DNA of 64,000 nt from an uncultured Pelagibacteraceae bacterium (GTDB taxonomy: Bacteria; Pseudomonadota; Alphaproteobacteria; Pelagibacterales; Pelagibacteraceae), in the NCBI GenBank assembly GCA_902607735.1, contig CACLLG010000002.1, positions 6,635 through 70,634 on the forward strand, written 5' to 3'. Numbering within the stretch: position 1 is the first letter of the stretch; the number at the start of each line of letters is the position of its first letter. The notes below the pieces were generated by a model. It made no database searches, was not told where the DNA came from, and worked only from the letters and a program-made list of their open reading frames with translations. Positions 28,188 through 50,504 of this stretch are shown here, piece by piece. The position numbers and the translations under genes were made by a program.

Positions 28188-28562
28188 TTATTTTAGATTA
28201 ATTGGTTTTCCGTGATTGTTTTTTTTGTTTTCACCCTCGGTTGCCCACCAAACGACTAAGAGAATAATACCAATTATTGTAATAAAAAGTAGTTGCCACC
28301 AACCAGACCTATTTATATCGTGAAGTCTTCTTGCGCCAACTGCAAAAGTTGGAATACAAGTTGCAAGGTGCCAAATTATTGTAAGTGGTCCAAGATCTTC
28401 ACTTGTAAATGGATAACCAAGAAAAATAGAATCAAAAATTGTCGCTACAATACCTCCGCCCCATTGAAAAAGAATAAACCACCAAAATTCAGATCTTAGC
28501 GCTCGTCCACTAAAATCAAAATAATGATTAAAGCATTTGTTAACCGATTGTGTAAAGTTCAT
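28188..28562 (-). CDS. DUF805-family inner membrane protein
   Basis: 124 aa. N-terminal F-x-G-R-A-x-R-S-E-F-W-W-F motif and RLHD-x-x-x-SGWW, characteristic of DUF805 (YhaH/YhaI-like). Confidence 0.65.
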   Translation of the reverse strand: MNFTQSVNKCFNHYFDFSGRALRSEFWWFILFQWGGGIVATIFDSIFLGYPFTSEDLGPLTIIWHLATCIPTFAVGARRLHDINRSGWWQLLFITIIGIILLVVWWATEGENKKNNHGKPINLK

Positions 28563-28758
28563 TTTATAATTTCTTCCTTTAAGTAAGTTTAATCTAAAAC
28601 TACGAACTTCAAAAGCAAGATTAAAACAAAATACTGTTCAATTATTATATCAATTTGATAAGTAGTGTAAATCTATAAGCTGGAGGCGGAAATAGGACGT
28701 GTCCTTTAAAAAAATTTTATGTATTTTGTTACTTGATTTTTTATAATACAATACGTTT

Positions 28759-29019
28759 ATGAAAAATTGGCTTGATATAAAAGAATATTTAATTGCGGTT
28801 TATGGCAGAGTTGTTTTGATATTAACTTGCTTAAGTTTATTAGTTGGATTGTTTATGTCATTTGTAGTTGCAGATTCGAGGTATGGGTTTAATGGTTGGG
28901 TTTTCTTATTCGGTATAGTTGTAACAATCTTTACTGTAGCACTTACATCCGGTCTGCTATTAATACAAATACAAAATAATGAATTGTTGAAAGAAATTCG
29001 GAAAAATACAAAAAAATAA
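28759..29019 (+). CDS. Hypothetical membrane protein (2-3 TM)
   Basis: 86 aa hydrophobic ORF. Preferred over the antisense 93 aa ORF 28800-29081. Confidence 0.4.
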   Translation: MKNWLDIKEYLIAVYGRVVLILTCLSLLVGLFMSFVVADSRYGFNGWVFLFGIVVTIFTVALTSGLLLIQIQNNELLKEIRKNTKK

Positions 29020-29089
29020 AAAAAGAAACTGAAGGTTCTGAAAACCAACTTAGATTGGAACCCGTGAATTATATCTTCCAATATGTTAA

Positions 29090-29572
29090 ATGATAAGTGA
29101 ATATATAAAAAGTGACATTCTTAAAATTCTAGATGTTATTAATGATGCTGCATTAAAATATAAAGGTATTATACCAAATGATTGTTGGCACGAACCATAC
29201 ATGTCAGAACAGGAATTGATTGACGAATTTAGTGATGGAGTTCGTATGCATGGTTATCATCAGAATAATAAATTGATCGGAGTTATAGGAGTTCAAAAAG
29301 TAAAAGATGTTATTCTTATAAGGCACGCATATACTTTGTCTTCTTATCAAAATAGAGGAGCTGGAAGTGCATTGATAGAATATTTATTAAAAAAAAATAA
29401 AAATTCTCGTTTATTGGTTGGTACTTGGAAGAATGCAACTTGGGCTATTCAATTTTATCAAAAATTTGGTTTTATTCCCCATGCAAAAGAAGAAACAACT
29501 TTATTACTAAAAAAATATTGGAAAATACCAGCAAAACAAATTGAAAATTCGGTAGTGCTTGAAAGGTGTTGA
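29090..29572 (+). CDS. GNAT-family N-acetyltransferase
   Basis: 160 aa. Acetyl-CoA motif A YQNRGAGSALIEYLL and downstream W-A-I-x-FY-x-K-x-GF. Confidence 0.7.
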   Translation: MISEYIKSDILKILDVINDAALKYKGIIPNDCWHEPYMSEQELIDEFSDGVRMHGYHQNNKLIGVIGVQKVKDVILIRHAYTLSSYQNRGAGSALIEYLLKKNKNSRLLVGTWKNATWAIQFYQKFGFIPHAKEETTLLLKKYWKIPAKQIENSVVLERC

Positions 29573-29602
29573 AACTGATTAAGATATAATGTTACAAAGT
29601 TC

Positions 29603-29627
29603 GGGGTACCTGGTAACAGAACACCTC
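29603..29627 (+). repeat. Degenerate copy of the ssrA terminal hairpin
   Basis: GGGGTACCTGGTAACAGAACACCTC against GGGGCACCGGGCAACAGAACGCCCC at 27833-27857. 20 of 25 positions are identical and there are no gaps. All three stem substitutions keep pairing (C:G to T:A, G:C to G:T). Confidence 0.55.
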
Positions 29628-29652
29628 TAGTAAACTTAGGATATAAAATTAA

Positions 29653-30696
29653 ATGAGTAATAATTCATTGGTTGTAATCAATAATGAAAAGGTTTTTGAA
29701 GATAATAACGAATTTTATTCTAGAAATTATAATTTTAAAATTCTTCCAGAAGGTTTAAATAATTATCACAAAGTAAAGTACATAGTTAGAAAATCAACCA
29801 AAAAAGAAAATCACAAGTTGAATTTACAAGATGTTAAGATAGCATCGAACATTATTCAATTTATTTATTTTGTAATTTCAACTTTTAAAAATAAAAACTC
29901 AAAATATTTTATAATTACAATTAGTCCGTATACATTTATTTCATTTTTATTTCTATTTCTGTTCAGAAAAAAGGTTTTTGTATACTTAATTAGTAGCGGA
30001 CATGAAGAATGGAAATTCATATTAGGCTCATGGTCTGTTTGGATATACCACATTATGTATTCAATAGTTACTTCAAATTCGACTGTTATTGTGCTTCACG
30101 ATAGATTGTGCAAGAAAAAAAATTGTCATGTAATAACTTCGTCAACTTTGGATGAAAAGTGGTTAAAGGATTATAAAGGCGTTAGACTTGATAAAATTAG
30201 ATTTTTATATGTTGCGAGAGTAAATCCTGAAAAAGGAATTTATGAATTTTTAGAAATGTTCAGAAAAATAAAACTTGACGCAGAAATTTCAATTGTTGGT
30301 AATATTAAAAATTCAAAAGTTTTAAAAAAATTTAAAGCTGCAATCGGAACAAATAAAAATATTAAATTCCTAGGATATGTGTCTGATAGACAATCTTTGA
30401 TTGATGCTTATGACAATCACAATATTTTGATCTTGCCATCATTCACGGAAGGTCAACCGTATGTTGTGGATGAGTCTCTTGCACGCAGACGACCCGTTAT
30501 TATATTTGAAGATATAGCTCATATAATCAAAGAAAGAAAAGGAATCTTTGTTTCAAAAAGAACAGTAGATTCATTTTGCGAAACAACAAAACATGTGATG
30601 CAAAATTATAATGAGATTCAAAAAAGCATTGAAAAGAATAAATTTCCACTTGAGAAAGATATGTTTAAACAAATCACTAATATTATTAGTCAATAA
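29653..30696 (+). CDS. Glycosyltransferase, GT-B fold (GT4-like)
   Basis: 347 aa. C-terminal E-x7-E region (PSFTEGQPYVVDESLARRRPVI) typical of GT4 retaining transferases. Confidence 0.6.
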   Translation: MSNNSLVVINNEKVFEDNNEFYSRNYNFKILPEGLNNYHKVKYIVRKSTKKENHKLNLQDVKIASNIIQFIYFVISTFKNKNSKYFIITISPYTFISFLFLFLFRKKVFVYLISSGHEEWKFILGSWSVWIYHIMYSIVTSNSTVIVLHDRLCKKKNCHVITSSTLDEKWLKDYKGVRLDKIRFLYVARVNPEKGIYEFLEMFRKIKLDAEISIVGNIKNSKVLKKFKAAIGTNKNIKFLGYVSDRQSLIDAYDNHNILILPSFTEGQPYVVDESLARRRPVIIFEDIAHIIKERKGIFVSKRTVDSFCETTKHVMQNYNEIQKSIEKNKFPLEKDMFKQITNIISQ

Positions 30697-31695
30697 TTAG
30701 TTTTTTGATAAAATTTTGAACCACTCCTTGGTAGCAAGTTCTATTGTTTTTGGGGTTCTAACAGGTGCATTTTTCCAATAATTGATATTCTTTAACAATC
30801 TTTTTACACCTTCCTCTATAGTTATTTTGGGCTCCCAATCTATATTACTTTTAATTTTTGAAATATCTGCGCAGGATCTATCTGGCTCACCAGGTCTTTC
30901 TGGTACAAAAACTTTTTCCCCGCCAAATAAATCAGCAATTTTATTTACAGATGTTTCTTTTCCTGAACCAACATTAAATATTTTATTTGATAAACTGCTT
31001 TTAGCAATTTTTATTAAAGCGTTAATCAAGTCATCAACATGAATGAAATCTCTAGTTTGGTTCCCGTGCCCAACTATTGTTAAGGGTTTTTTAGCCGCTT
31101 TTTGCGCTAAAAAAATACCAAAAATTGCACCGTATTGTCCGGAGATTTTTGACCGCGGTCCATACACATTAAAAAATCTTAAGGATACATTTGGCATATT
31201 AAAAATTGAGGCATAGTGCATTACTAATTTTTCTCCCAAAAACTTTGTTAATGCATATGGGTGTTTTGTATCAATTTCTGCGTTCTCTGAAGTTGGATAA
31301 TTTTTTGGTATACCATAACAACTTGATGAGGCTGCATAAATCAATTTTTTAATTTTTGCTTTTTTTGCCGCTTCAATAATTTTAAGAGTACCAAGCACAT
31401 TTGACATGAAGTACTTCTTTGGATTTTTTATACTTGGAACAATATTTGCTAGTCCCGCTAAATGAAAAACATAATCTACTCCTTTAAAATATTTATCTAA
31501 TTTTCTATTTTCAGAAATATCTAATTTAATAATTTTAACGTTCTTTTTTTTATGGTGAGATAAATTTGATCTTTTTCCTGTAATAAAATTATCTAATACA
31601 GTAACCTTGTGACCCATCCTAACTAACTGGTCAACCAAATTACTGCCTATAAAACCTGCGCCTCCGCTAACTATTGATGTTTCCCTTTTCTTCAT
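30697..31695 (-). CDS. NAD-dependent NDP-sugar epimerase/dehydratase (UDP-glucuronate decarboxylase-like)
   Basis: 332 aa. GGAGFIGSNLVDQL Rossmann motif, LDNFITGKRSNL as in UXS-type enzymes, and YALTK (YxxxK). Confidence 0.75.
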   Translation of the reverse strand: MKKRETSIVSGGAGFIGSNLVDQLVRMGHKVTVLDNFITGKRSNLSHHKKKNVKIIKLDISENRKLDKYFKGVDYVFHLAGLANIVPSIKNPKKYFMSNVLGTLKIIEAAKKAKIKKLIYAASSSCYGIPKNYPTSENAEIDTKHPYALTKFLGEKLVMHYASIFNMPNVSLRFFNVYGPRSKISGQYGAIFGIFLAQKAAKKPLTIVGHGNQTRDFIHVDDLINALIKIAKSSLSNKIFNVGSGKETSVNKIADLFGGEKVFVPERPGEPDRSCADISKIKSNIDWEPKITIEEGVKRLLKNINYWKNAPVRTPKTIELATKEWFKILSKN

Positions 31696-31705
31696 AATAT
31701 AGCCG

Positions 31706-33022
31706 CTAAATCCATCCGCTATCTCCAGAGATATGATAATTATTTTTTAAATTATAATTTTTCCATGCCCCATCATGATCAATAATGTACTTACAGTTTT
31801 TAAGATATTTTTTTAATTTTATTGCAGGGATTTTAAATTTTTTATGATCAACTGAGACTATAACGCAATCAAATTTTGTTAGATCGTTTGGAAATTTAAA
31901 AGTTTTAACCCCTAAAATATTTTTAATTTCTTTTGAAGTAAAATATGGATCAAATAATTTTACATTTAACCTGTTTTTTCTTAATGCATTTACTAAGGGA
32001 ATAACCTTTGATAAAACACTTACTTTTAAATCTCCTTTATATGACAAACCCAAAACACCAATTTTCTTATAACCTTTTTTTGCAATAGATCTTGCAACCA
32101 GCAAGTTCATCCTATCGTCGGTTTTGATTGTTTCCCTTAATAAAGTAAGTTTATTATTATCTCTGACTTGCGACAAGATATATCTGCTTGATAAAGGTAT
32201 ACAATATCCTCCTGCGCCAATGCCCGGGTGAAAAGTTTCAAGATTCCACTTAGTTCCAACTAATTTTAAAACTTCTCTCATATTGTCTTTTGGAAAAGCG
32301 AGTGACAACTGATTTGCGAGAGTGATATCCATATGTCTATAAGCATTTTCAACACTCTTAACCATCTCTGAAACTTTGTATGAACTAGCCATATGAAGTT
32401 TTTTACAAACAATTGATAAAACATCTTTAGCGACCTTTGCAGATTTTATATCGGTTGAACCGTAGACTCTATCTAAATTTTTAAGATTTTTGACACCCTC
32501 AATAAACCAGTCTCTTCTGGGGGCAACAGAGAATAAAATATCTTGACCTAATTTTAATTTTTTTTTTTTAAAAAATGGGATAATTTTTTTATCTGATACT
32601 TTAGGCGCAAGTGTAGACTCCACAACTATAATTGGTGGAATTTTAATATTTTTACCTCGAATTTTTGAAATTTTGCTGAGCACATCAAACAAAGCTTTGA
32701 AGTAAGGTTTGCCATTTTTTTCAGTTGGAACTGCGATAAAATGCGCCAAGAAATTTTCTGAAATTAACTCACTATATTTTGAAGTTGCTTTTAAATAATT
32801 GTTTTTAACTAATTTTGTTATATCAAATCCAAACCAATTTTTAAGGTCTGCTTGTGGAAGAATTCCTGAATTTATTTTTCTTACTTTTTTTCTATCAATA
32901 TCATAGCCCACACATTTTATTTTTTCTTTTGAAAAATAAACCATTGTAGATAAACCAATATATCCTGTTCCCCAAATAGCAATTTTAAATTTCTTTGATT
33001 TAAGTAATTTTTTATAATTCAT
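31706..33022 (-). CDS. Nucleotide-sugar dehydrogenase (UDP-glucose/GDP-mannose dehydrogenase family, WecC/Cap5O-like)
   Basis: 438 aa. N-terminal IAIWGTGYIGLS and catalytic-Cys region GAGGYCIP. Confidence 0.8.
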   Translation of the reverse strand: MNYKKLLKSKKFKIAIWGTGYIGLSTMVYFSKEKIKCVGYDIDRKKVRKINSGILPQADLKNWFGFDITKLVKNNYLKATSKYSELISENFLAHFIAVPTEKNGKPYFKALFDVLSKISKIRGKNIKIPPIIVVESTLAPKVSDKKIIPFFKKKKLKLGQDILFSVAPRRDWFIEGVKNLKNLDRVYGSTDIKSAKVAKDVLSIVCKKLHMASSYKVSEMVKSVENAYRHMDITLANQLSLAFPKDNMREVLKLVGTKWNLETFHPGIGAGGYCIPLSSRYILSQVRDNNKLTLLRETIKTDDRMNLLVARSIAKKGYKKIGVLGLSYKGDLKVSVLSKVIPLVNALRKNRLNVKLFDPYFTSKEIKNILGVKTFKFPNDLTKFDCVIVSVDHKKFKIPAIKLKKYLKNCKYIIDHDGAWKNYNLKNNYHISGDSGWI

Positions 33023-33035
33023 TTATATGTGTAAT

Positions 33036-33183
33036 TTTAATTAATCTGCCCAACCACATTCTTATTTTTTAAGCCATCCACTTTTTTGATATTATTGATT
33101 TCACCTTTGTCTAAGTAAAAAATTTTATCACATTCATCTGGCAAAGAAATTTTATGACTCATTATTACAATCGTAGTTTTTTG
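33036..33183 (-). pseudogene. Relic of the C-terminus of an ABC-transporter ATPase
   Basis: Hand translation gives (stop)QKTTIVIMSHKISLPDECDKIFYLDKGEINNIKKVDGLKNKNVVGQIN(stop). TTIVIMSH matches the H-loop, and ...CDKIFYLDKGEI matches the conserved post-H-loop strand of ABC NBDs. An in-frame TGA lies immediately upstream, and there are no Walker A/B or signature motifs. Confidence 0.45.
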
Positions 33184-33338
33184 TCAACGAATTGTATTAA
33201 CGATTATAATTTAAGCGTGATACCAACACTTATTTAACTAAATTTAATTCCGTACGCACCGAGTTCTTATTTTAAGACTTTTCAATTCAAATTATTCGCG
33301 AATACTGTTACAGTATAATTCACCAGGATGGTAAAATT

Positions 33339-33461
33339 ATGAGTGAAGAACATAAAATGACAAAGCAGGACAAGTTGGCACTAACAATTACTTTAGCTGC
33401 AATATTTTTTGGAGTATTTTTTTTAGGGTTTGTTGGTTTAATATTTAATTTATTTGGTTAA
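33339..33461 (+). CDS. Possible 40-aa single-TM micropeptide
   Basis: ATG preceded by AGGATGG. Reads MSEEHKMTKQDKLALTITLAAIFFGVFFLGFVGLIFNLFG. It sits in an otherwise non-coding 464 nt gap, with no homology support. Confidence 0.25.
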   Translation: MSEEHKMTKQDKLALTITLAAIFFGVFFLGFVGLIFNLFG

Positions 33462-33486
33462 AATTTATTTAAAAAAACAATTTAAA

Positions 33487-34473
33487 TTAATATTTTTTTC
33501 CAAAAAAATAGCTTAAAGATCCATATAATAAGCCTGTTAACATCAAAAAAGTATCAATATAACAAACTGCCATCGCTCCGAATGCCTTGCTAAAACCTTT
33601 TGCACGACCAACAAATCTCATAAATCCTGTGTGCAGTAATAGAAATGCAATATTTAAAATTAAAAAAATGGATAAAATTATTTCATTTGGAAAAATAATA
33701 TTCACAATAGCTGTCAAAATAATTAAGCCCAAAATTACTATTCCAGCTAACACCTTCGAATAGTTCGTTTGCTTAATTTTTTTGATATAAGTTTTATTTC
33801 TAAGATATTCTTTCATTACATCTATATAGGTATAGAATTTTTTTTTTACAAAGTGTCCTATGCTATAATTGACTCTGTGTTCGACATTTAATTCTCTTGA
33901 TATTAAAATCTTATAACCTTTATCCATTAGAAGATAACCAAATTCTTCGTCCTCTGCTGATGCACGTTTAATATTTACGTTAAAACCTTTAAGATTTAGA
34001 AATATTTTCTTTCTTATTGCAAAACAACATGTTGATAAAGTAGATGCGTATTTTTTATTTTTAGGCCAAATATAATAACAATTGTAGCTCATCTGATATT
34101 GAGTAGCTATACTCTCATATGTTGGTTGGTGAGAATAGATTCCTTGAATAGCGTCTATCTCATTTTGAAAAAACATATCGTTAAGATAGTTTATGGCTTC
34201 ATTTTTAATTATAACGTCAGAGTCAATAAAAAATAATATATCCCCTGCTGCTGCTTGAGCCCCACTGTTTCTTGCAAAAGCAGGGCCCTTATTTTTTGGC
34301 AATTCTATAATTTTACATTGATACTTCTTTGCTATCATAACAGAATTGTCGGGGCTATTATCTGAAACAATAATAACTTCAAAATTTTTGAAGCTCGAAT
34401 TAAAAATGGCACTTAGACATTCATTTAATGTGAGTGATGAATTATAGACTGGAATAATAATCGAAATTTTCAC
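33487..34473 (-). CDS. GT2-family glycosyltransferase with C-terminal TM segments
   Basis: 328 aa. ISIIIPVYNS...IIVSDNSPDNS and FIDSDV (DxD), with 2-3 C-terminal TM helices. 4 nt overlap with the upstream radical SAM gene. Confidence 0.8.
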   Translation of the reverse strand: MKISIIIPVYNSSLTLNECLSAIFNSSFKNFEVIIVSDNSPDNSVMIAKKYQCKIIELPKNKGPAFARNSGAQAAAGDILFFIDSDVIIKNEAINYLNDMFFQNEIDAIQGIYSHQPTYESIATQYQMSYNCYYIWPKNKKYASTLSTCCFAIRKKIFLNLKGFNVNIKRASAEDEEFGYLLMDKGYKILISRELNVEHRVNYSIGHFVKKKFYTYIDVMKEYLRNKTYIKKIKQTNYSKVLAGIVILGLIILTAIVNIIFPNEIILSIFLILNIAFLLLHTGFMRFVGRAKGFSKAFGAMAVCYIDTFLMLTGLLYGSLSYFFGKKY

Positions 34474-35627
34474 TTTATAGTCGATGCTACCTTGATTAGT
34501 TTCGGATAATACTTAGGATTAAACAGAATATTAACATTGTTAAAACATTCGTGAGTACAAAAACATTTAGTTTTCCTAATAAAATTAACTTCCTCTTTAG
34601 CTTTTTGAGATAACCATAGTTTTCTAAAATCCAGATTAAAATCTCGGATGTTGCCAATCAAGTGTGACTTGTCTAATATTTCGCACGGATAAACCTGACC
34701 TTCAGGATACATTACTCCACTAATATTTGCCGAATAGCATGGAGATTGATACTTTTTTGTTTCATAAATTTTATATACCATCTCATTTAAAAGAACTCTT
34801 GCTGCAGTAGCCAATTTATTTCCTTTGAATTTTTTATGTCCTGACATTTTTTTTGAATAAAATAGGCTATTTCTATATGCTACTGCCTCTTGATACAATT
34901 TCATATTTAGATTTACATTTACTTTTTCTTTAGGATCACCTCTCACCAAATTAATAGCGATATTGTCAGGTTTAGTTAATTCGTAAATTCCCTTTAATAT
35001 ATCTTTCATTTTATTTTGATTTTCTGAAGTAAATGTTATGACAATACCAACATTTATTCTTTCAAATTCTTTTTGAAGCTTTTTAATATGTTGAATTGAA
35101 TTTAATACTTTTTTAAATGAACCGTTTGCTCCTCTTATTCTATCGTGGTCTTCCTCCAAACCATCTAGTGAAAGTAGTTGATTTAAAATTAATTCTGGAC
35201 ACCAATTCATCATATTTCTTATTTGTCTATCCATCTTTTCTAAATACCAACCATTAGATGGTATGGTTAAAGTTGGTATTTTAGTATTTTCGTAAAATAT
35301 TCTTACAATTTGATCTAGGTTATGTTTGAGATATGGTTCACCACCAGTAAGTACCAAGTTTAAAAGTGGATCCATAGTTTTTGTAAAAGAATCAATTTCA
35401 TCTAAAGTCAACTCGTTAAATCTTTTATTTAAACTATCGTGATAAAAACAATGGGAACAGCTTAAATTACATCTACTAGTTGGAAAAAATATAAAGTAAG
35501 AAGGTAACTGGTTTTTTTTAACAACAGACTTGTACAAATGATGATGATATTGAATTGGCTTACTTTTTGAGACATTTGCAAATTTTCCATTATTTATCTC
35601 TTGTTTATTAACATTTTCTTTATCCAT
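34470..35627 (-). CDS. Radical SAM protein with SPASM/twitch-like C-terminal Cys cluster
   Basis: 385 aa. CNLSCSHC (CxxxCxxC), LTGGEPYL. C-terminal CYSANISGVMYPEGQVYPCE and CFCTHEC. Confidence 0.8.
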   Translation of the reverse strand: MDKENVNKQEINNGKFANVSKSKPIQYHHHLYKSVVKKNQLPSYFIFFPTSRCNLSCSHCFYHDSLNKRFNELTLDEIDSFTKTMDPLLNLVLTGGEPYLKHNLDQIVRIFYENTKIPTLTIPSNGWYLEKMDRQIRNMMNWCPELILNQLLSLDGLEEDHDRIRGANGSFKKVLNSIQHIKKLQKEFERINVGIVITFTSENQNKMKDILKGIYELTKPDNIAINLVRGDPKEKVNVNLNMKLYQEAVAYRNSLFYSKKMSGHKKFKGNKLATAARVLLNEMVYKIYETKKYQSPCYSANISGVMYPEGQVYPCEILDKSHLIGNIRDFNLDFRKLWLSQKAKEEVNFIRKTKCFCTHECFNNVNILFNPKYYPKLIKVASTIK

Positions 35628-35684
35628 ATCTTTTCAAAATAAATTAAAAATAAAATTTTTACAATAGAAATAAACAAAAAAAAC

Positions 35685-37526
35685 CTAATCAGCCTTAAAT
35701 TTATTTTTATAGTCTAGCAATAAGTTTTGATTTTGCTTCTCTTTGTATAAAGTAAAATTTTCACAAACCAAAATATCTAGATTGGTGCCCATAAAACACT
35801 TAAAAGCATCTTCAACTGAACATACTATAGGTTCACCTCTAACATTAAAAGATGTGTTTACTAGTACTGGGCAATTTGTGATTTCCTTAAATTTTTTCAA
35901 TAATTTATAATATCTGGGATTTGTTTCTTCATGAACGGTTTGTATTCTGGCAGAATAATCAATATGGGTAATAGCAGGAATAGATGATCTTTTTACATTC
36001 AACTTTTCTATACCAAAAAGTTTTTGGTCATTTGCACTCATTGGAATTCGAATATTTTTCTTAACATCCGCAACTAGTAACATATATGGACTGTCACAAT
36101 CTAACTCAAACCAATTATTTAAATCTTCTCTTAGCACTGAAGGCGCAAATGGTCTAAAACTTTCTCTAAACTTAACTTTTAGATTCAACTCTTTCTGCAT
36201 TTTATCTGACCTTGGATCAGCTATAATTGATCTTGCTCCAAGAGCGCGCGGCCCAAATTCCATTCGACCTTGAAACCATCCTATAGTTTTTTCATTTTTT
36301 AGCTCATTAGCAATTAAATTAATTAAATTTTCTTCACTTTGTTTTTCATATTTTCCGCCCAGGGATTTTAAAATATTTTCAATATGATTATTGTCAAATG
36401 AGGGTCCAAGATAAGCACCTTTCATATCGTCTTGACCTTGAGATAAATTTCTTTTATTTCCGAGTTCTTGATGCCAAAATGCTAAAGCTGCTCCTAAAGA
36501 TCCTCCGGCATCTCCTGCTGCAGGTTGAAACCAAATATTTTTAAAAATATTATTTTTTAATATTTTACCATTTGCTACACAATTTAAAGCTACCCCTCCT
36601 GCCATACATAGATTTTGGCTTTTTGTTTCTTTTGATATTGAGGTTGCTAATTTTAAAACAATTTCTTCAGTTACCGCTTGTATAGATGCAGCAATATCCA
36701 TATGAAATTGGGTTAATAAATCTTTTTCAGGATTTCTAACTTTTTGCCCAAATAAGTTTGAAAACTTTTCGTTTGTCATGGTTAATCCAGTTGCATAATT
36801 AAAATATTCCATATTGAGTCTAAAAGACCCATCTTCTTTTAAATCTATAAGTTCTTTTAAAATAATGTCTTTAAATTTAGGTTCACCATAAGGCGCTAAA
36901 CCCATCACTTTATATTCTCCGCTATTTACTTTAAAGCCAGTATAATAAGTAAAGGCAGAATAAAGCAAACCTATAGAATGAGGAAAATGAATTTCTTTTA
37001 GCATTTTGATTTCATGGTTATTTCCCTCCGCCACTGTAGTGGTCGCCCATTCTCCAACTCCATCTAAAGTTAGTATAACCGCATCCTTAAAAGGCGATGG
37101 ATAGAAAGCGCTTGCAGCATGACTGTAATGATGCTCTGAAAAACGAATTTTATTTATATCATTAAAATTTTCATCATGTTGTTTTAATTTTTCGAATAAA
37201 AATTGTTTTTGAAAAAGCTTTTCTCTTAACCAAATGGGCATAGACATACAAAAAGAGGTAAATCCTTTAGGTGCAAAAGCCAAATAAGTTTCTAACAATC
37301 TTTCAAATTTTAAAAAAGGTTTTTCAAAAAAAACAATGTAATCAATTTGACTCAATTTTAAATTTGAGTGATTTAAAACAAATTTTATTGCATTAAAAGG
37401 ATAACTAGAGTCATGTTTTTTTCTTGAAAATCTTTCTTCTTGAGCTGCCGAAATTATTTTTCCATCAATAATTAATGCTGCTGCGCTATCATGGTAAAAC
37501 GCCGATATACCTAAAATTGAAGTCAC
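35685..37526 (-). CDS. Carbamoyltransferase (NodU/CmcH/SxtI family)
   Basis: 613 aa. ILGISAFYHDSAAALIIDGKIISAAQEERFSRKKHD N-terminus, GGVALNCVANG and NTSFNVRGEPIVCS. GTG start abuts the upstream stop. Confidence 0.85.
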   Translation of the reverse strand: MTSILGISAFYHDSAAALIIDGKIISAAQEERFSRKKHDSSYPFNAIKFVLNHSNLKLSQIDYIVFFEKPFLKFERLLETYLAFAPKGFTSFCMSMPIWLREKLFQKQFLFEKLKQHDENFNDINKIRFSEHHYSHAASAFYPSPFKDAVILTLDGVGEWATTTVAEGNNHEIKMLKEIHFPHSIGLLYSAFTYYTGFKVNSGEYKVMGLAPYGEPKFKDIILKELIDLKEDGSFRLNMEYFNYATGLTMTNEKFSNLFGQKVRNPEKDLLTQFHMDIAASIQAVTEEIVLKLATSISKETKSQNLCMAGGVALNCVANGKILKNNIFKNIWFQPAAGDAGGSLGAALAFWHQELGNKRNLSQGQDDMKGAYLGPSFDNNHIENILKSLGGKYEKQSEENLINLIANELKNEKTIGWFQGRMEFGPRALGARSIIADPRSDKMQKELNLKVKFRESFRPFAPSVLREDLNNWFELDCDSPYMLLVADVKKNIRIPMSANDQKLFGIEKLNVKRSSIPAITHIDYSARIQTVHEETNPRYYKLLKKFKEITNCPVLVNTSFNVRGEPIVCSVEDAFKCFMGTNLDILVCENFTLYKEKQNQNLLLDYKNKFKAD

Positions 37527-37679
37527 TTAAAAAATAGTATAAATAAATGGAGCTACCGCTGATCCTTGACTTAGAACTATTAATGCTCCAAATAAGCCTA
37601 GAACTATTAAAATCGGAAACAACCAATATTTTTTTCTTTCTTTCAAAAAATCCCAAAATTCTTTTATAAAACTTAACAT
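37527..37679 (-). CDS. DUF5989-like (SxtK-like) small membrane protein
   Basis: Start re-set to ATG 37679-37677 (MLSFIKEFWDFLKERKKYWLFPILIVLGLFGALIVLSQGSAVAPFIYTIF, 50 aa). This forms a TAATG stop/start overlap with the upstream gene. Confidence 0.6.
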   Translation of the reverse strand: MLSFIKEFWDFLKERKKYWLFPILIVLGLFGALIVLSQGSAVAPFIYTIF

Positions 37680-38056
37680 TAAAATTGTCTTTTCATTGAA
37701 CCAATATTTTTTTCTCTTTTTATCCAATACGAACGGTTACTTGAAAGTTTTGTATTTAACAAATCTTTACCTAAAATGCGCATAAGTAATCCGATTGGTG
37801 TAATAACAAAAAAATATATAATGCCCATGACGATTGGCGCTATCACTTTTCCTAAAAGTTCTCCAAATTTGATCCAAGCTAAATTTAGGGGTGTTAGTAG
37901 CTTTGAATTAATTAAGCCTAAAATTAGAAAAATTATAGAAATTGCTAGCGACCATACTCTTACTGCTCCTCCATCAATAAGAGGAAAAAATGCTATTAAC
38001 AAAAAAACCAAAAAGAAAACTATACCAAAGCTTTTATTTGAATTATTTTTTTTCAT
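37679..38056 (-). CDS. SxtJ-like membrane protein
   Basis: 125 aa, 3 TM. SNKSFGIVFF N-terminus and the conserved position upstream of the DUF5989 and carbamoyltransferase genes. Confidence 0.5.
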   Translation of the reverse strand: MKKNNSNKSFGIVFFLVFLLIAFFPLIDGGAVRVWSLAISIIFLILGLINSKLLTPLNLAWIKFGELLGKVIAPIVMGIIYFFVITPIGLLMRILGKDLLNTKLSSNRSYWIKREKNIGSMKRQF

Positions 38057-38062
38057 TTAGAT

Positions 38063-39037
38063 TTACCTTAAGTTTTTTAGATCATTCTCTACCATGCTTA
38101 CCACTAAATCATCAAATGATATTTTTGGCTCCCAACCTAAATTTTTTTTAGCCTTAGTAGAGTTTGCTAAAAGAGCATCTACTTCGGCTGGTCTAATCAA
38201 AACTTTATCTATAACTATATGATCCTTATAATTTAAACCAACATGAGCAAATGCTTTTTTAGCAAAATCTTCTACTGAGTGTTCTTTACCAGTTCCAATT
38301 ACATAATCTCCCGGTTTATCTTGCTGTAACATCAACCACATAGCGTTTACATAATCTTGAGCATGTCCCCAATCTCTTTTTGCTTTAATATTTCCTAGTT
38401 TTAATTTTTCGTGTGAGCCATTTTTTATTTTGGCTACAGCATGTGAGATTTTTCGAGTTACAAATTCAAATCCTCTTCTTGGCGATTCATGATTAAATAG
38501 TATTCCATTTGAAGCATGAAGATTGTATGCGTCTCTATAATTTTTCGTCAAATAATAACCAGTAACTTTAGATATTCCATAAGAAGACCTAGGATAAAAT
38601 AATGTATTTTCATTTTGTGGGGTTTCTTTTACTTTTCCAAACATTTCTGAAGAACCTGCAAAATAAAATCTTACTTTGCTAGATATAAACTCTTTGGTAG
38701 CAGAAAGAAGATAATGAGTTCCATTTATATTAATATTAAGTGTTGAAAATTCATCTTCAAAAGAATATCCAACATAACTTTGAGCCGCCAGATGGTATAC
38801 TTCGGTTGGTTTTATTTTTAAAATAATATTAAATAAACTTGCATAACTTTCTAAAGATCCCGCATGCAATGTAACATCTTTTAAAATTTTTCTAATTCTC
38901 CAAAGTCTGTGTGTTGCATCTTCTAATGCTACTCTCCTTACTATTCCATGAACCTTGTAGCCCTTGCTCAACAACAGTTCAGCAAGATAAGAACCGTCTT
39001 GACCAGTAATACCTGTTATAAGTGCAACTTTTGACAT
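38063..39037 (-). CDS. gmd: GDP-mannose 4,6-dehydratase
   Basis: 324 aa. ALITGITGQDGSYLAELLLSKGYKVHGIVRR, YGISK (YxxxK) and NHESPRRG motifs. Confidence 0.85.
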   Translation of the reverse strand: MSKVALITGITGQDGSYLAELLLSKGYKVHGIVRRVALEDATHRLWRIRKILKDVTLHAGSLESYASLFNIILKIKPTEVYHLAAQSYVGYSFEDEFSTLNININGTHYLLSATKEFISSKVRFYFAGSSEMFGKVKETPQNENTLFYPRSSYGISKVTGYYLTKNYRDAYNLHASNGILFNHESPRRGFEFVTRKISHAVAKIKNGSHEKLKLGNIKAKRDWGHAQDYVNAMWLMLQQDKPGDYVIGTGKEHSVEDFAKKAFAHVGLNYKDHIVIDKVLIRPAEVDALLANSTKAKKNLGWEPKISFDDLVVSMVENDLKNLR

Positions 39038-39118
39038 ACAGAAAACATTCTAGAAACAAATCATATTGTAATTAAAGTATCCAATCTTTGTAACATAAAA
39101 ATCCAGTTTGTTTAAATG

Positions 39119-39817
39119 TTAAATTCTGAAATTAGATTTTTTGCTATCTTTTAAAAATTTTTTTACAGTATCTAGAGTTAAGTCTTGATAAGTTTTTCCA
39201 AATTTAGATATTTTTTCTATTATAGATGGAGGCATAGTTATTATTGAACAATTACTTTTTTTTGCCTGCAAGTAATTATAAGCTTCTCTTGTACTAGCCC
39301 AAAGTATTTTTATATTTTTGTATTTTTTTGTTAAACGAACACTTTCTTTGATTATTGGAAGTGGATCTTTACCTGCATCACTCATCCTTCCTGAAAAAAT
39401 TGATATTATTGTCTTAGAATTTTTATTCAAATATTTAAGTATTTTGACAACTTGGGTTACTGTATAAACAGCTGTAATATTAAGTTTAATATTATTTGCA
39501 CTAAGCTGATTAATTATTTTTCCTGAAAAAAAACCTTTTGAATTAATCACTGGTATTTTAACATAAACATTTTTCCCCCATGAACTAATAATTTTTGCTT
39601 GTTTTAACATTCCACTGTTATTATCTGCAAAAACTTCTAAAGAAATAGGTTTTTTCCTACATGCTTTAAGCAGCTTTAATGAGTATCTTTTATAATCTTT
39701 TGCTCCAGCTTGTCTCATCAAACTTGGATTGGTTGTGAATCCTTTTACAAGAGAATTTTTATCTAATTTTTTTATAACTTTGAGATCTGCAGTATCACAA
39801 TAAATTTCTAATTTCAT
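39119..39817 (-). CDS. Transaldolase family protein (short TalC/Fsa type)
   Basis: 232 aa. GFTTNPSL, the VKIP Schiff-base Lys region, and FSGR. Confidence 0.8.
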   Translation of the reverse strand: MKLEIYCDTADLKVIKKLDKNSLVKGFTTNPSLMRQAGAKDYKRYSLKLLKACRKKPISLEVFADNNSGMLKQAKIISSWGKNVYVKIPVINSKGFFSGKIINQLSANNIKLNITAVYTVTQVVKILKYLNKNSKTIISIFSGRMSDAGKDPLPIIKESVRLTKKYKNIKILWASTREAYNYLQAKKSNCSIITMPPSIIEKISKFGKTYQDLTLDTVKKFLKDSKKSNFRI

Positions 39818-49295: not shown

Positions 49296-50504
49296 TTATG
49301 TATTGTTAATAATGTAATTTGAAACAATTTTATAACCATCGTAATTAAAATGCATCCAATCTAACGGTCCATGCAAAATTTTATTTGCGTTTTCCTCCCT
49401 GATATGTTGGGCAATATCAAGAAAATCTAGATTATTTTTTTTGGAAAAATTTTCTATTTCTTCTCTAATATATTCGCTTTTTAAATCATTTTCCTTATTT
49501 GAGAGAATTTTAATTGTTTCTGAATTTTTTATCGTATATTCGATTGGTTCATCCCAAATATAACAGCTTATTGGAGATGGTATATAAACTATTAATATTT
49601 CATCAGTTCCTATCCAAGATTTAATATATTTTATTGATTCAAAAAATATTTTTAAACTTATCGAGATTTCTTCATTAGTTAAGTTAGCAGCCGCACTATG
49701 TAGAGGTTGTATATTGTTATAATTATCTTTGTTTTTTATTGAGTTGATGTATATTTCCTTATTTTTTTTTTCAGTATTTAAAAGGACAGTAAAACCTAAA
49801 AACTTTTTAATTCGATCGATTATTAATGATTTTTTATTTTCATTCTGATCATTGGTTAATAATTTGTTAAATAAAATATGTATATGACCATATAAATCAC
49901 CCACGATTGAAATTAGAGGAAGAAGACTAGTTAACTTGTCATTCGTAGTAAGACTGGTATTTTCTTTAATGCGTCGCGAAACAAAACTGTTAATATCTTC
50001 ATTTGTATTTGATAGTGAAGAATATTCAAAAAAATTATCTTCGAGATCGTTGCCCTCGTAGAAAAAAAAGATAATTGATTCTGGTTTATTTAAATTTTTA
50101 AAAAAAATTGGTAAATTACTTATTTTCTTTAATTTAACTAAATTTGAAACAGCAGAAATAGAGCCAAAACCTGCTCTTCCAAATATTAAATAATTTTTAT
50201 CGTCATTTTTGTGTAAATGATGACCAATAGAATAATCGTAAGTGCCATTTAAATACCCATCACCATTTCCTTGGGAGTAAGAATCTCCTACAATAGCTAT
50301 ATAATTTTCTAAATTATTCTTTTTATAGGTATCTGGATAAAATGTTACTAGAAAATTAGGTAAAGAATTGGCGAGAGATCTTGGATAAAATTTTTGTGAA
50401 GGAAAATTTAAAATTAGAAAATTAACAATTAGTAAGCTCAATATTAGAAAAATTATTAAAATAAAGAAATTTATAAAATAATTTTTTAGCTTTATTAAAT
50501 CCAT
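49296..50504 (-). CDS. Membrane-anchored SGNH/GDSL-like hydrolase or acyl-transfer protein
   Basis: 402 aa. N-terminal TM, block I IAIVGDSYSQGNGDG (GDS), C-terminal DWMH (DxxH). Confidence 0.5.
   Translation of the reverse strand: MDLIKLKNYFINFFILIIFLILSLLIVNFLILNFPSQKFYPRSLANSLPNFLVTFYPDTYKKNNLENYIAIVGDSYSQGNGDGYLNGTYDYSIGHHLHKNDDKNYLIFGRAGFGSISAVSNLVKLKKISNLPIFFKNLNKPESIIFFFYEGNDLEDNFFEYSSLSNTNEDINSFVSRRIKENTSLTTNDKLTSLLPLISIVGDLYGHIHILFNKLLTNDQNENKKSLIIDRIKKFLGFTVLLNTEKKNKEIYINSIKNKDNYNNIQPLHSAAANLTNEEISISLKIFFESIKYIKSWIGTDEILIVYIPSPISCYIWDEPIEYTIKNSETIKILSNKENDLKSEYIREEIENFSKKNNLDFLDIAQHIREENANKILHGPLDWMHFNYDGYKIVSNYIINNT

Follow-up and report, generated by a model that had tools for sequence, protein, structure and literature searches.

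Do five neighbouring genes that run in the same direction through a glycan island form one biosynthetic module, or have independent units come to lie side by side? The question is raised by a window of 64,000 nucleotides (positions 6635-70634 of contig C2; G+C about 30%) from the 66%-complete, roughly 0.8-Mb assembly of a streamlined SAR11 bacterium, whose relatives are uncultured Pelagibacteraceae. Here, the genes for an SxtJ-like membrane protein, a DUF5989 microprotein and a carbamoyltransferase, together called the triad below, are followed by those for a radical SAM enzyme and a family 2 glycosyltransferase (GT2) with C-terminal transmembrane (TM) helices. An earlier note, made from the sequence alone, treated the five genes as one module. 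Comparison of gene neighbourhoods indicates that the string probably consists of two self-contained cassettes placed side by side in the glycan island of one SAR11 lineage, with the triad as an envelope O-carbamoylation unit. The triad belongs to a kind that is already named and functionally unexplained, and the locus is of most value for suggesting that DUF5989/SxtK may be a tyrosine shuttle, and for revealing a widespread radical SAM/GT2 pair.

All five open reading frames (ORFs) lie on the minus strand, where the earlier note had placed them, and Pfam agrees with their assignment. The SxtJ-like protein (125 aa, PF19588) is encoded at 37679-38056, the DUF5989 microprotein (50 aa, PF19451) at 37527-37679 and the carbamoyltransferase (613 aa, Carbam_trans_N and Carbam_trans_C) at 35685-37526. 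The radical SAM enzyme (385 aa, Pfam match to Radical_SAM) follows at 34470-35627, and the GT2 (328 aa, PF00535) at 33487-34473. The junctions described earlier were each verified in the sequence. Stop and start of the SxtJ and DUF5989 genes share one A in a TAATG, the GTG start of the carbamoyltransferase directly abuts the DUF5989 TAA, and the radical SAM and GT2 genes have 4 nt in common. The sole junction that neither overlaps nor abuts is an A/T-rich intergenic gap of 57 nt, read from the sequence at 35628-35684, and this gap is the seam between the two cassettes. Translational coupling, which the title of the earlier note extended to the whole string, therefore holds inside each of the two cassettes, but not from the triad to the radical SAM gene.

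The triad is found in many places without the pair. Of 61 SAR11 relatives, 21 carry DUF5989, as do 13% of near-complete Pseudomonadota genomes (50/393). In 17 SAR11 loci the three genes of the triad form an unbroken block, and the gene after it differs among loci and frequently lies on the opposite strand. Among 40 loci of other Pseudomonadota, the carbamoyltransferase stands beside DUF5989 in 39 and SxtJ accompanies them in 34; the order is either J-K-I, as in the window, or I-J-K, as in the saxitoxin (sxt) clusters. As in an sxtIJK-type cassette, the three genes of the window are immediately adjacent and co-directional. Within 10 kb of the triad, no radical SAM homologue occurs in any of the 40 diverse loci. 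Even carbamoyltransferase relatives of 86-87% identity occur without the pair, with TenA and an M23 peptidase as neighbours. A different association of the triad with a radical enzyme was encountered in genome G122 (L115:211-5718, minus strand), where the triad is followed by co-directional genes for a methyltransferase, an SDR protein and a distant radical SAM/SPASM enzyme, without a GT2.

The radical SAM/GT2 pair has a distribution of its own. A scan of species-representative genomes returned at least 417 relatives of the radical SAM enzyme, which come from Pelagibacteraceae, Binatia, Deltaproteobacteria, Planctomycetia, Omnitrophota, Chloroflexota, Acidobacteriota and DPANN archaea, and flanks were read for the best 79 of these loci. 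In 46 a GT2 homologue directly adjoins the radical SAM gene, in one the two are fused and in 18 it is nearby; a carbamoyltransferase, SxtJ or DUF5989 gene lies within 7 kb in none of the 79. Homologues of 70-99% identity are abundant in marine metagenomes. In SAR11-related loci with readable flanks, a homologous GT2 gene with TM helices comes directly after the radical SAM gene, and the upstream neighbour is different each time: a ygfZ-like GCV_T gene beside nadA (L031, L041), gpsA (L037), Wzy (L040), a methyltransferase-like gene in another glycan island (L046), and others again in L111 and L112, whose radical SAM enzymes are 86-90% identical to that of the window. The pair is thus seen in at least six other SAR11 contexts without a carbamoyltransferase, and among the closest radical SAM orthologues (72-90% identity) the preceding gene is never a carbamoyltransferase. 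A second radical SAM subfamily, about 30% identical, is likewise paired with a GT2, and stands beside an integrase in L098.

The five genes as one string were found only in a strain with 98% identity and, in a paralogous version, in one congener. With no radical SAM homologue near the 40 triad loci and no triad gene near the 79 radical SAM loci, the single module of the earlier note is not supported, since in the comparison of co-occurrence and synteny it essentially fails to recur as a unit. Judged from these sequence comparisons, the radical SAM/GT2 pair appears to be an older cassette, separately inherited and unrelated to the triad.

What might the triad do? The carbamoyltransferase matches both domains of its family over almost their whole length (Carbam_trans_N, E 1e-106, profile 2-346 of 346; Carbam_trans_C, E 2.7e-74, profile 1-170 of 170), and its sequence matches in the PDB are full-length alignments with NovN (1e-90), GdmN (7e-83) and TobZ (6.5e-74). 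On this evidence it is classed as an O-carbamoyltransferase of the TobZ/NovN/GdmN/NodU type, with predicted Kae1-like N-terminal and YrdC-like C-terminal domains; it misses the cut-off of the NodU equivalog (NCBIfam NF041651) with 150.5 bits vs 1000. The motifs EHHYSH and LDGVGE are visible in the sequence where the metal-binding His-x3-His and Asp motifs of the Kae1-like domain of TobZ would be expected, and are candidates for them. TobZ converts carbamoyl phosphate and ATP to carbamoyl-AMP, and then transfers the carbamoyl group to a hydroxyl. Given this family chemistry and the full-length domain matches, carbamoyl-AMP chemistry is presumably common to the window enzyme as well.

The triad enzymes differ from these relatives in the company they keep. 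TobZ, NovN, GdmN and NodU share the full-length two-domain architecture but are soluble, and act alone on small molecules, whereas the triad clade always comes with two small membrane proteins. The carbamoyltransferase and DUF5989 are also unusually conserved, at about 60% identity across Pseudomonadota; the median identity to triad counterparts in other Pseudomonadota is 61% for the carbamoyltransferase and 38% for SxtJ. Such conservation of the enzyme and the microprotein fits a fixed peptide acceptor.

Membership of the two small proteins in the SxtJ and DUF5989 families, proposed in the earlier note, was borne out by a hidden Markov model (HMM) search, in which both score above the Pfam cut-offs. 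SxtJ reaches 46.8 bits vs 24.4 (E 5.4e-12, profile 5-98 of 99), and has three hydrophobic segments and conserved F10, G11, W61, P87, Y110 and F125; an invariant His was sought among the conserved residues and none was found. A natural fusion bears on its role. In genome G190, a carbamoyltransferase (residues 2-592) and an SxtJ (619-726) form a single protein of 738 aa (L117:10202-12418, minus strand), with DUF5989 and SGNH genes coming after it. This fusion suggests that SxtJ tethers the enzyme to the membrane and has its N-terminus in the cytoplasm. SxtJ thus probably tethers the carbamoyltransferase to the inner membrane.

The most informative feature of the locus, absent from the earlier note, is a motif at the C-terminus of the microprotein. 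The window DUF5989 (93 bits vs a cut-off of 27, E 1.1e-26, profile 2-49 of 49) has a single TM helix between a basic N-terminus (RKKYW) and a tail of 14 aa that ends in FIYTIF, a form of FxYxxF. Across 62 loci, Tyr is found at position -4 in all 62 DUF5989 C-termini, Phe at -6 in 60 and Phe at -1 in 59, with the tail consensus ...QGSAVAPF-I-Y-T-[LI]-F. In a full-library search, which gave 3,416 DUF5989 clusters at 50% identity, 121 of the 150 best cluster representatives end in FxYxxF, and in 19 more the motif precedes an apparent read-through tail. In P0390 and about 18 other representatives the gene call crosses the stop into the carbamoyltransferase start (e.g., ...PFIYTLF-Q-TMTAILGISAF), and these tails suggest stop-codon reassignment or read-through gene calls in some source genomes. 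One locus (L077:9926-10367, minus strand) has a tandem DUF5989 pair before a single carbamoyltransferase, of which one ends in FIYTLY and the other in LIYTMF. The motif is rare as a C-terminus in this genome, where 4 of 2,550 ORFs have it, two of them encoding DUF5989 proteins. The basic RKKYW segment ahead of the TM helix suggests that the C-terminus is probably periplasmic.

A tail of this kind has a known counterpart. DltX and bacterial MBOATs such as PatA end in an extracellular FxYxxF known as the acyl-shuttle motif, whose tyrosine passes D-alanyl or acetyl groups to an SGNH transferase (PMC12148441). The DltX of Bacillus thuringiensis is a protein of 48 aa, with a basic N-terminus of 11 aa, one TM helix and a 15-aa tail ending in FIYNEF (PMC5541007). 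The Dlt system (DltB as MBOAT, DltX, and DltD as SGNH protein) and PatA/PatB therefore resemble the triad in having a microprotein of some 50 aa, with a single TM helix between a basic N-terminus and a short outer tail ending in FxYxxF (PMC5541007, PMC12148441), a frequent membrane-anchored SGNH partner and a cytoplasmic activating enzyme that forms an adenylate. They differ in that no homology to DltX is detectable, that the 125-aa SxtJ is the sole other membrane protein in place of an MBOAT, and that carbamoyl from carbamoyl-AMP would be moved here, rather than acyl from a thioester. The resemblance of DUF5989 to DltX, as far as sequence goes, is limited to layout and motif.

The SGNH partner can be traced in other triad loci. 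By Pfam tally, GDSL/SGNH is the commonest neighbour family of the triad. With Pfam-verified seeds, SGNH genes are directly beside or inside 19 of 66 DUF5989 loci, and the remaining 985 kb of flanks hold four. In three loci the SGNH gene lies between SxtJ and DUF5989 (L023:8648-9943, L025:44-1069 and L067:6205-7425). The triad-linked SGNH proteins keep all the catalytic blocks with Ser, Gly, Asn and His, and most have an N-terminal TM anchor. The link is visible by Pfam tally only; clustering of the triad neighbours by sequence gave no fourth gene that is kept at the sequence level.

DUF5989 also occurs with such proteins where there is no carbamoyltransferase. This genome has a second, divergent DUF5989 of 55 aa (41.9 bits; contig C19, L030, 2291-4805), which ends in FIYKIF. 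Its gene is directly upstream of one for a 334-aa AT3 acyltransferase and divergent from a 314-aa SGNH-like gene, in a glycan island with GT17, B12-radical SAM and sulfotransferase genes, and without a carbamoyltransferase. Two further loci have DUF5989 beside an SGNH-TPR protein (L090) and an SGNH protein (L114), again without a carbamoyltransferase. Together, the FxYxxF tail, the SGNH linkage and these occurrences suggest that DUF5989 may be a general tyrosine shuttle, to which the triad would supply carbamoyl groups.

The saxitoxin clusters offer a parallel. The earlier note held that the triad mirrors sxtI-sxtJ-sxtK, and this stands, since Carbam_trans_N/C, PF19588 and PF19451 form one tight block in both. 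In the sxt clusters, sxtK is followed by sxtL, a GDSL lipase (PMC2679770), and about 30% of the sampled loci likewise have SGNH genes. What SxtJ and SxtK do in the sxt clusters is still described as unknown (PMC2679770, PMC12300590). The window differs in its order (J-K-I vs I-J-K) and in having no adjacent SGNH gene and no other sxt-type gene.

From these elements the following scheme may be proposed. A cytoplasmic TobZ-type enzyme would turn carbamoyl phosphate and ATP into carbamoyl-AMP, while SxtJ, as the natural fusion suggests, would keep this enzyme at the inner membrane. The tyrosine of the DUF5989 FxYxxF tail would then carry the carbamoyl group either to a membrane-anchored SGNH transferase or directly to the acceptor, the outcome being an O-carbamoylated sugar of a surface polysaccharide. 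Shuttling of carbamoyl-tyrosine to a surface glycan is plausible by analogy with the DltX and PatA tails. More broadly, carbamoyltransferase, SxtJ and DUF5989, with or without SGNH, might form a third class of trans-envelope transfer beside MBOAT-SGNH and AT3-SGNH, in which the tyrosine of a microprotein is loaded and then donates to periplasmic or surface glycans; we give this somewhat less than an even chance.

Several points weigh against the shuttle. The window triad has no adjacent SGNH gene and the window holds no match to the triad-type SGNH profile; the sole triad-type SGNH gene in the 66%-complete assembly is on another contig (C19:3861-4805). About 60-70% of DUF5989 loci are likewise without an adjacent SGNH gene. 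There is no MBOAT or AT3 in the triad cassette and no invariant His in SxtJ, so that the membrane crossing of the carbamoyl group is left without a candidate catalyst. Comparison of the DUF5989 and DltX profiles gave no homology (hhalign probability 3.4%), and DUF5989 has no match to PF12459 (DltX) at E<=10, while B. thuringiensis DltX scores 75.7 bits; there is no cross-match. We know of no carbamoylated SAR11 glycan, and the literature searched held no relevant paper on DUF5989, or linking a carbamoyltransferase to O-antigen or SGNH proteins. A GDSL-like gene elsewhere in the window (49296-50504) was considered as an SGNH partner and rejected, as the profile of the triad-linked SGNH proteins gave no match to it at E<=1.

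These points are accommodated more simply if SxtJ and DUF5989 are mere anchors or adaptors. The carbamoyltransferase would then act directly, at the cytoplasmic face, on an undecaprenyl-diphosphate-linked repeat unit or another membrane-bound substrate, and the SGNH neighbours would be unrelated esterases or acetyltransferases. All characterised members of the family (TobZ, NovN, GdmN and NodU) transfer the carbamoyl group straight to their final substrate, the carbamoyltransferase::SxtJ fusion is a case of tethering, most loci, the window included, have no adjacent SGNH gene, and no membrane conduit is evident. However, such direct carbamoylation leaves unaccounted for an invariant FxYxxF at the extreme, probably periplasmic, C-terminus, the SGNH genes inside the triad in L023, L025 and L067, and the association of DUF5989 with AT3 and SGNH where there is no carbamoyltransferase. 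A conservation of 61% identity over distant taxa would also be odd for an enzyme that recognises variable glycans. We therefore consider direct action rather unlikely, albeit a serious competitor to the tyrosine shuttle. The envelope O-carbamoylation suggested by the earlier note remains the best reading of the triad; a joint module with the radical SAM/GT2 pair is not supported.

Separate cassettes might nevertheless cooperate where they happen to meet. All five genes, perhaps with gmd, could serve one pathway, in which a sugar derived from a GDP-6-deoxyhexose, once loaded by the GT2 onto a lipid carrier, undergoes modification by the radical SAM enzyme and carbamoylation by the tethered carbamoyltransferase. 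The two cassettes of the window are co-directional, only 57 nt apart and without a predicted terminator between them, and they are probably co-transcribed. A promoter and terminator scan of 33000-39200 detected no consensus-like site inside the gap; sites were rarer overall than in shuffled sequence, and the scan is uninformative.

The comparison with close relatives is divided. A metagenome contig (L197) encodes a carbamoyltransferase 98% identical to that of the window, and therefore comes from the same population. Its island is reduced to gmd, the triad and the pair, in the order tal-gmd-SxtJ-DUF5989-carbamoyltransferase-radical SAM-GT2, with a gmd-SxtJ junction like that of the window, and is followed directly by a DUF805 gene that in the window lies 5 kb further along. 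Thus, exactly these genes have been kept while the rest of the island is gone. In the congener G003 (L013), the triad is followed by a paralogous radical SAM enzyme (30% identity) and GT2 (25%), which looks like a second, independent juxtaposition. These observations count against two unconnected cassettes and in favour of a shared pathway, as does the adjacency of the cassettes in two of the approximately seven relatives that hold both. Two juxtapositions in one genus are more than random placement would lead one to expect.

On the other side, G021, G001 and G033 keep the cassettes apart, on different contigs or with other neighbours. The radical SAM orthologues of 86-90% identity in L111 and L112 have other genes upstream, the carbamoyltransferase relatives of 86-87% identity stand alone, and the wider surveys found the two cassettes together in none of the 40 and 79 loci. 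A local functional link is therefore improbable, although the repeated juxtaposition in one genus leaves it a modest share of the probability, and two self-contained cassettes are the preferred interpretation.

The strain comparison also delimits what is variable in the island. Between L197:7333-8255 and window positions 28188-33486, the genes for UDP-sugar dehydrogenase, epimerase, GT1 and GNAT (at about 29.0-33.0 kb of the window) are absent from L197. This strain-level insertion/deletion ends exactly at the GT2 stop, adjoining a 464-nt gap at 33023-33486.

The second cassette can be described more closely than it can be assigned a substrate. The radical SAM enzyme matches Radical_SAM (E 1e-13), and its score for SPASM (20.1 bits) is just below the cut-off of 21.5, while the SPASM HMM scores 25.9-34.4 bits in its paralogues. 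An alignment of the two subfamilies shows the invariant cluster C53-x3-C57-x2-C60, and five more invariant Cys (C297-x12-G-x4-C315 and C355-x-C357-x3-C361), where a canonical SPASM domain has seven. The C-terminal domain is, from this pattern, a putative reduced SPASM/twitch-like domain. An AlphaFold2 (AF2) model of the enzyme (pLDDT 78.8, pTM 0.83) was matched by Foldseek to CteB, anSME, SkfB, DesII, BlsE and MoaA with template modelling scores of about 0.55. These matches are unspecific and allow no substrate to be inferred, as the model is equally like peptide-modifying (CteB, SkfB, anSME) and sugar-modifying (DesII, BlsE, BtrN) enzymes.

The GT2 is clearly a member of PF00535 (E 1e-30, 107 bits), and DSD84-86, E174-D175 and H199 are invariant in the alignment. 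Its AF2 model (pLDDT 70) has helices at 237-323, corresponding to about four C-terminal TM helices. Foldseek gave generic GT-A matches (E about 1e-11), among which PcManGT (6yv7) was no better than the soluble TarS and TarP, and the match to dolichyl-phosphate mannose synthase (DPMS; 5mlz, E 3e-10) covers the N-terminal 100 aa only. Because the fold matches are generic, a polyprenyl-phosphate sugar synthase and a polymer glycosyltransferase are inseparable by fold. The GT2 resembles DPMS, GtrB, ArnC and PcManGT in that about four TM helices come after a GT-A domain with DxD, and in that PMT_2 GT-C proteins recur as neighbours. It differs from them in that the similarity is weak, that it has no obligate GT-C partner here, and that its obligate radical SAM partner is without precedent there. 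The DPMS and PcManGT matches, taken with the PMT_2 GT-C neighbours, hint weakly that the GT2 may participate in polyprenyl-phosphate sugar synthesis.

That the two proteins of the pair work together is suggested by fusions of a GT2 with TM helices to a radical SAM/SPASM enzyme, found in genome G035 (L054:9754-11814, minus strand, 686 aa) and in an Elusimicrobia metagenome-assembled genome, or MAG (L191:15-1946, plus strand, 643 aa). Such fusions imply that both proteins act together at the membrane. The pair might then be a membrane-embedded GT-A glycosyltransferase with a radical enzyme, by which a radically modified sugar would probably be put on a lipid-linked or membrane acceptor. Neighbours that recur beside it are PMT_2 GT-C proteins (6/130), other radical SAM enzymes and membrane methyltransferases.

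Three observations on the wider family may be recorded. In the marine metagenome contigs L106-L110, genes for a 523-aa PMT_2-like GT-C, a paralogous radical SAM enzyme and a GT2 are inserted between mdh and sucC, within a run of TCA-cycle genes. A GT-C with 41% identity is encoded at the end of contig C23 of this genome, and no radical SAM homologue was detected elsewhere in the assembly. A Candidatus Woesearchaeota MAG from groundwater (L121, on a 437-kb scaffold) encodes a radical SAM enzyme 69% identical to that of SAR11, where other non-SAR11 homologues are 30-42% identical; this match could reflect recent horizontal transfer or a mis-binned contig.

A peptide might also be considered as the substrate. 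Maturation of a ribosomally synthesised and post-translationally modified peptide (RiPP), or a mycofactocin-like system comparable to MftC and MftF, would agree with MftF as the best NCBIfam match of the GT2 (76.9 bits), with a weak match of the radical SAM enzyme to SPASM peptide maturases, and with CteB, SkfB and anSME among the top Foldseek matches. Yet the scores are far under the cut-offs (MftF, 76.9 vs 280), MftC is not among the top matches, and no precursor-peptide ORF or RiPP recognition element (RRE) domain stands beside the pair in any context read. The recurrent neighbours are glycan and lipid genes, and the fusions of L054 and L191 attach the radical SAM domain to a TM domain, all of which makes peptide maturation very improbable. 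The NCBIfam scores for the hopanoid (HpnH/I/J), arsenosugar and mycofactocin identities of the pair are likewise far under cut-off, and these candidates were rejected.

The surroundings of the string agree with a glycan island, as the earlier note described it. The gene for GDP-mannose 4,6-dehydratase (gmd; 38063-39037, minus strand; Pfam GDP_Man_Dehyd, E 1.2e-120) is 6 nt upstream of the SxtJ gene. It is context, outside the conserved cassette; GDP_Man_Dehyd is found among 5 of 145 triad neighbours in other loci. Downstream of the string, Pfam identifies a UDP-sugar dehydrogenase, an epimerase/dehydratase and a GT1-family glycosyltransferase, and the window neighbours also include Wzy. Among about 25 neighbouring genes, Pfam found glycan, sugar-nucleotide and housekeeping families only, and none of the other sxt pathway genes. 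Because the triad lies in a SAR11 surface-glycan island, it very probably modifies a sugar polymer rather than an alkaloid. A role in tailoring some small secondary metabolite, like that of SxtI, TobZ and NovN, is barely credible, for although the Pfam families of the triad are named for saxitoxin genes and the nearest solved structures are antibiotic-tailoring enzymes, the window has no scaffold-forming biosynthetic genes (the neighbours are gmd, the UDP-sugar dehydrogenase, the epimerase, the glycosyltransferases and Wzy), the assembly is a streamlined SAR11 one of about 0.8 Mb, and 13% of Pseudomonadota genomes have the cassette, in surroundings that vary and are often glycan-related.

For annotation and co-occurrence work, the triad and the radical SAM/GT2 pair should accordingly be treated as separate cassettes and not as a five-gene unit. 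The pair is widespread over phyla, fused in two lineages and present at several insertion sites of the SAR11 core genome, and has no assigned chemistry. The triad is very common and has been labelled as of unknown function ever since the description of the sxt cluster; with the FxYxxF tail, the link to SGNH proteins, the carbamoyltransferase::SxtJ fusion and a second copy beside AT3, the shuttle hypothesis becomes experimentally concrete. If true, a third class of transfer machinery would also account for SxtJ, SxtK and SxtL of the saxitoxin clusters, and DUF5989 would be a shuttle that is used by AT3 acyltransferases too, as on contig C19. Surface-glycan islands of SAR11 are thought to shape interactions with phages and grazers. 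Decoration with carbamoyl groups would be one more axis of strain-level surface variation in SAR11.

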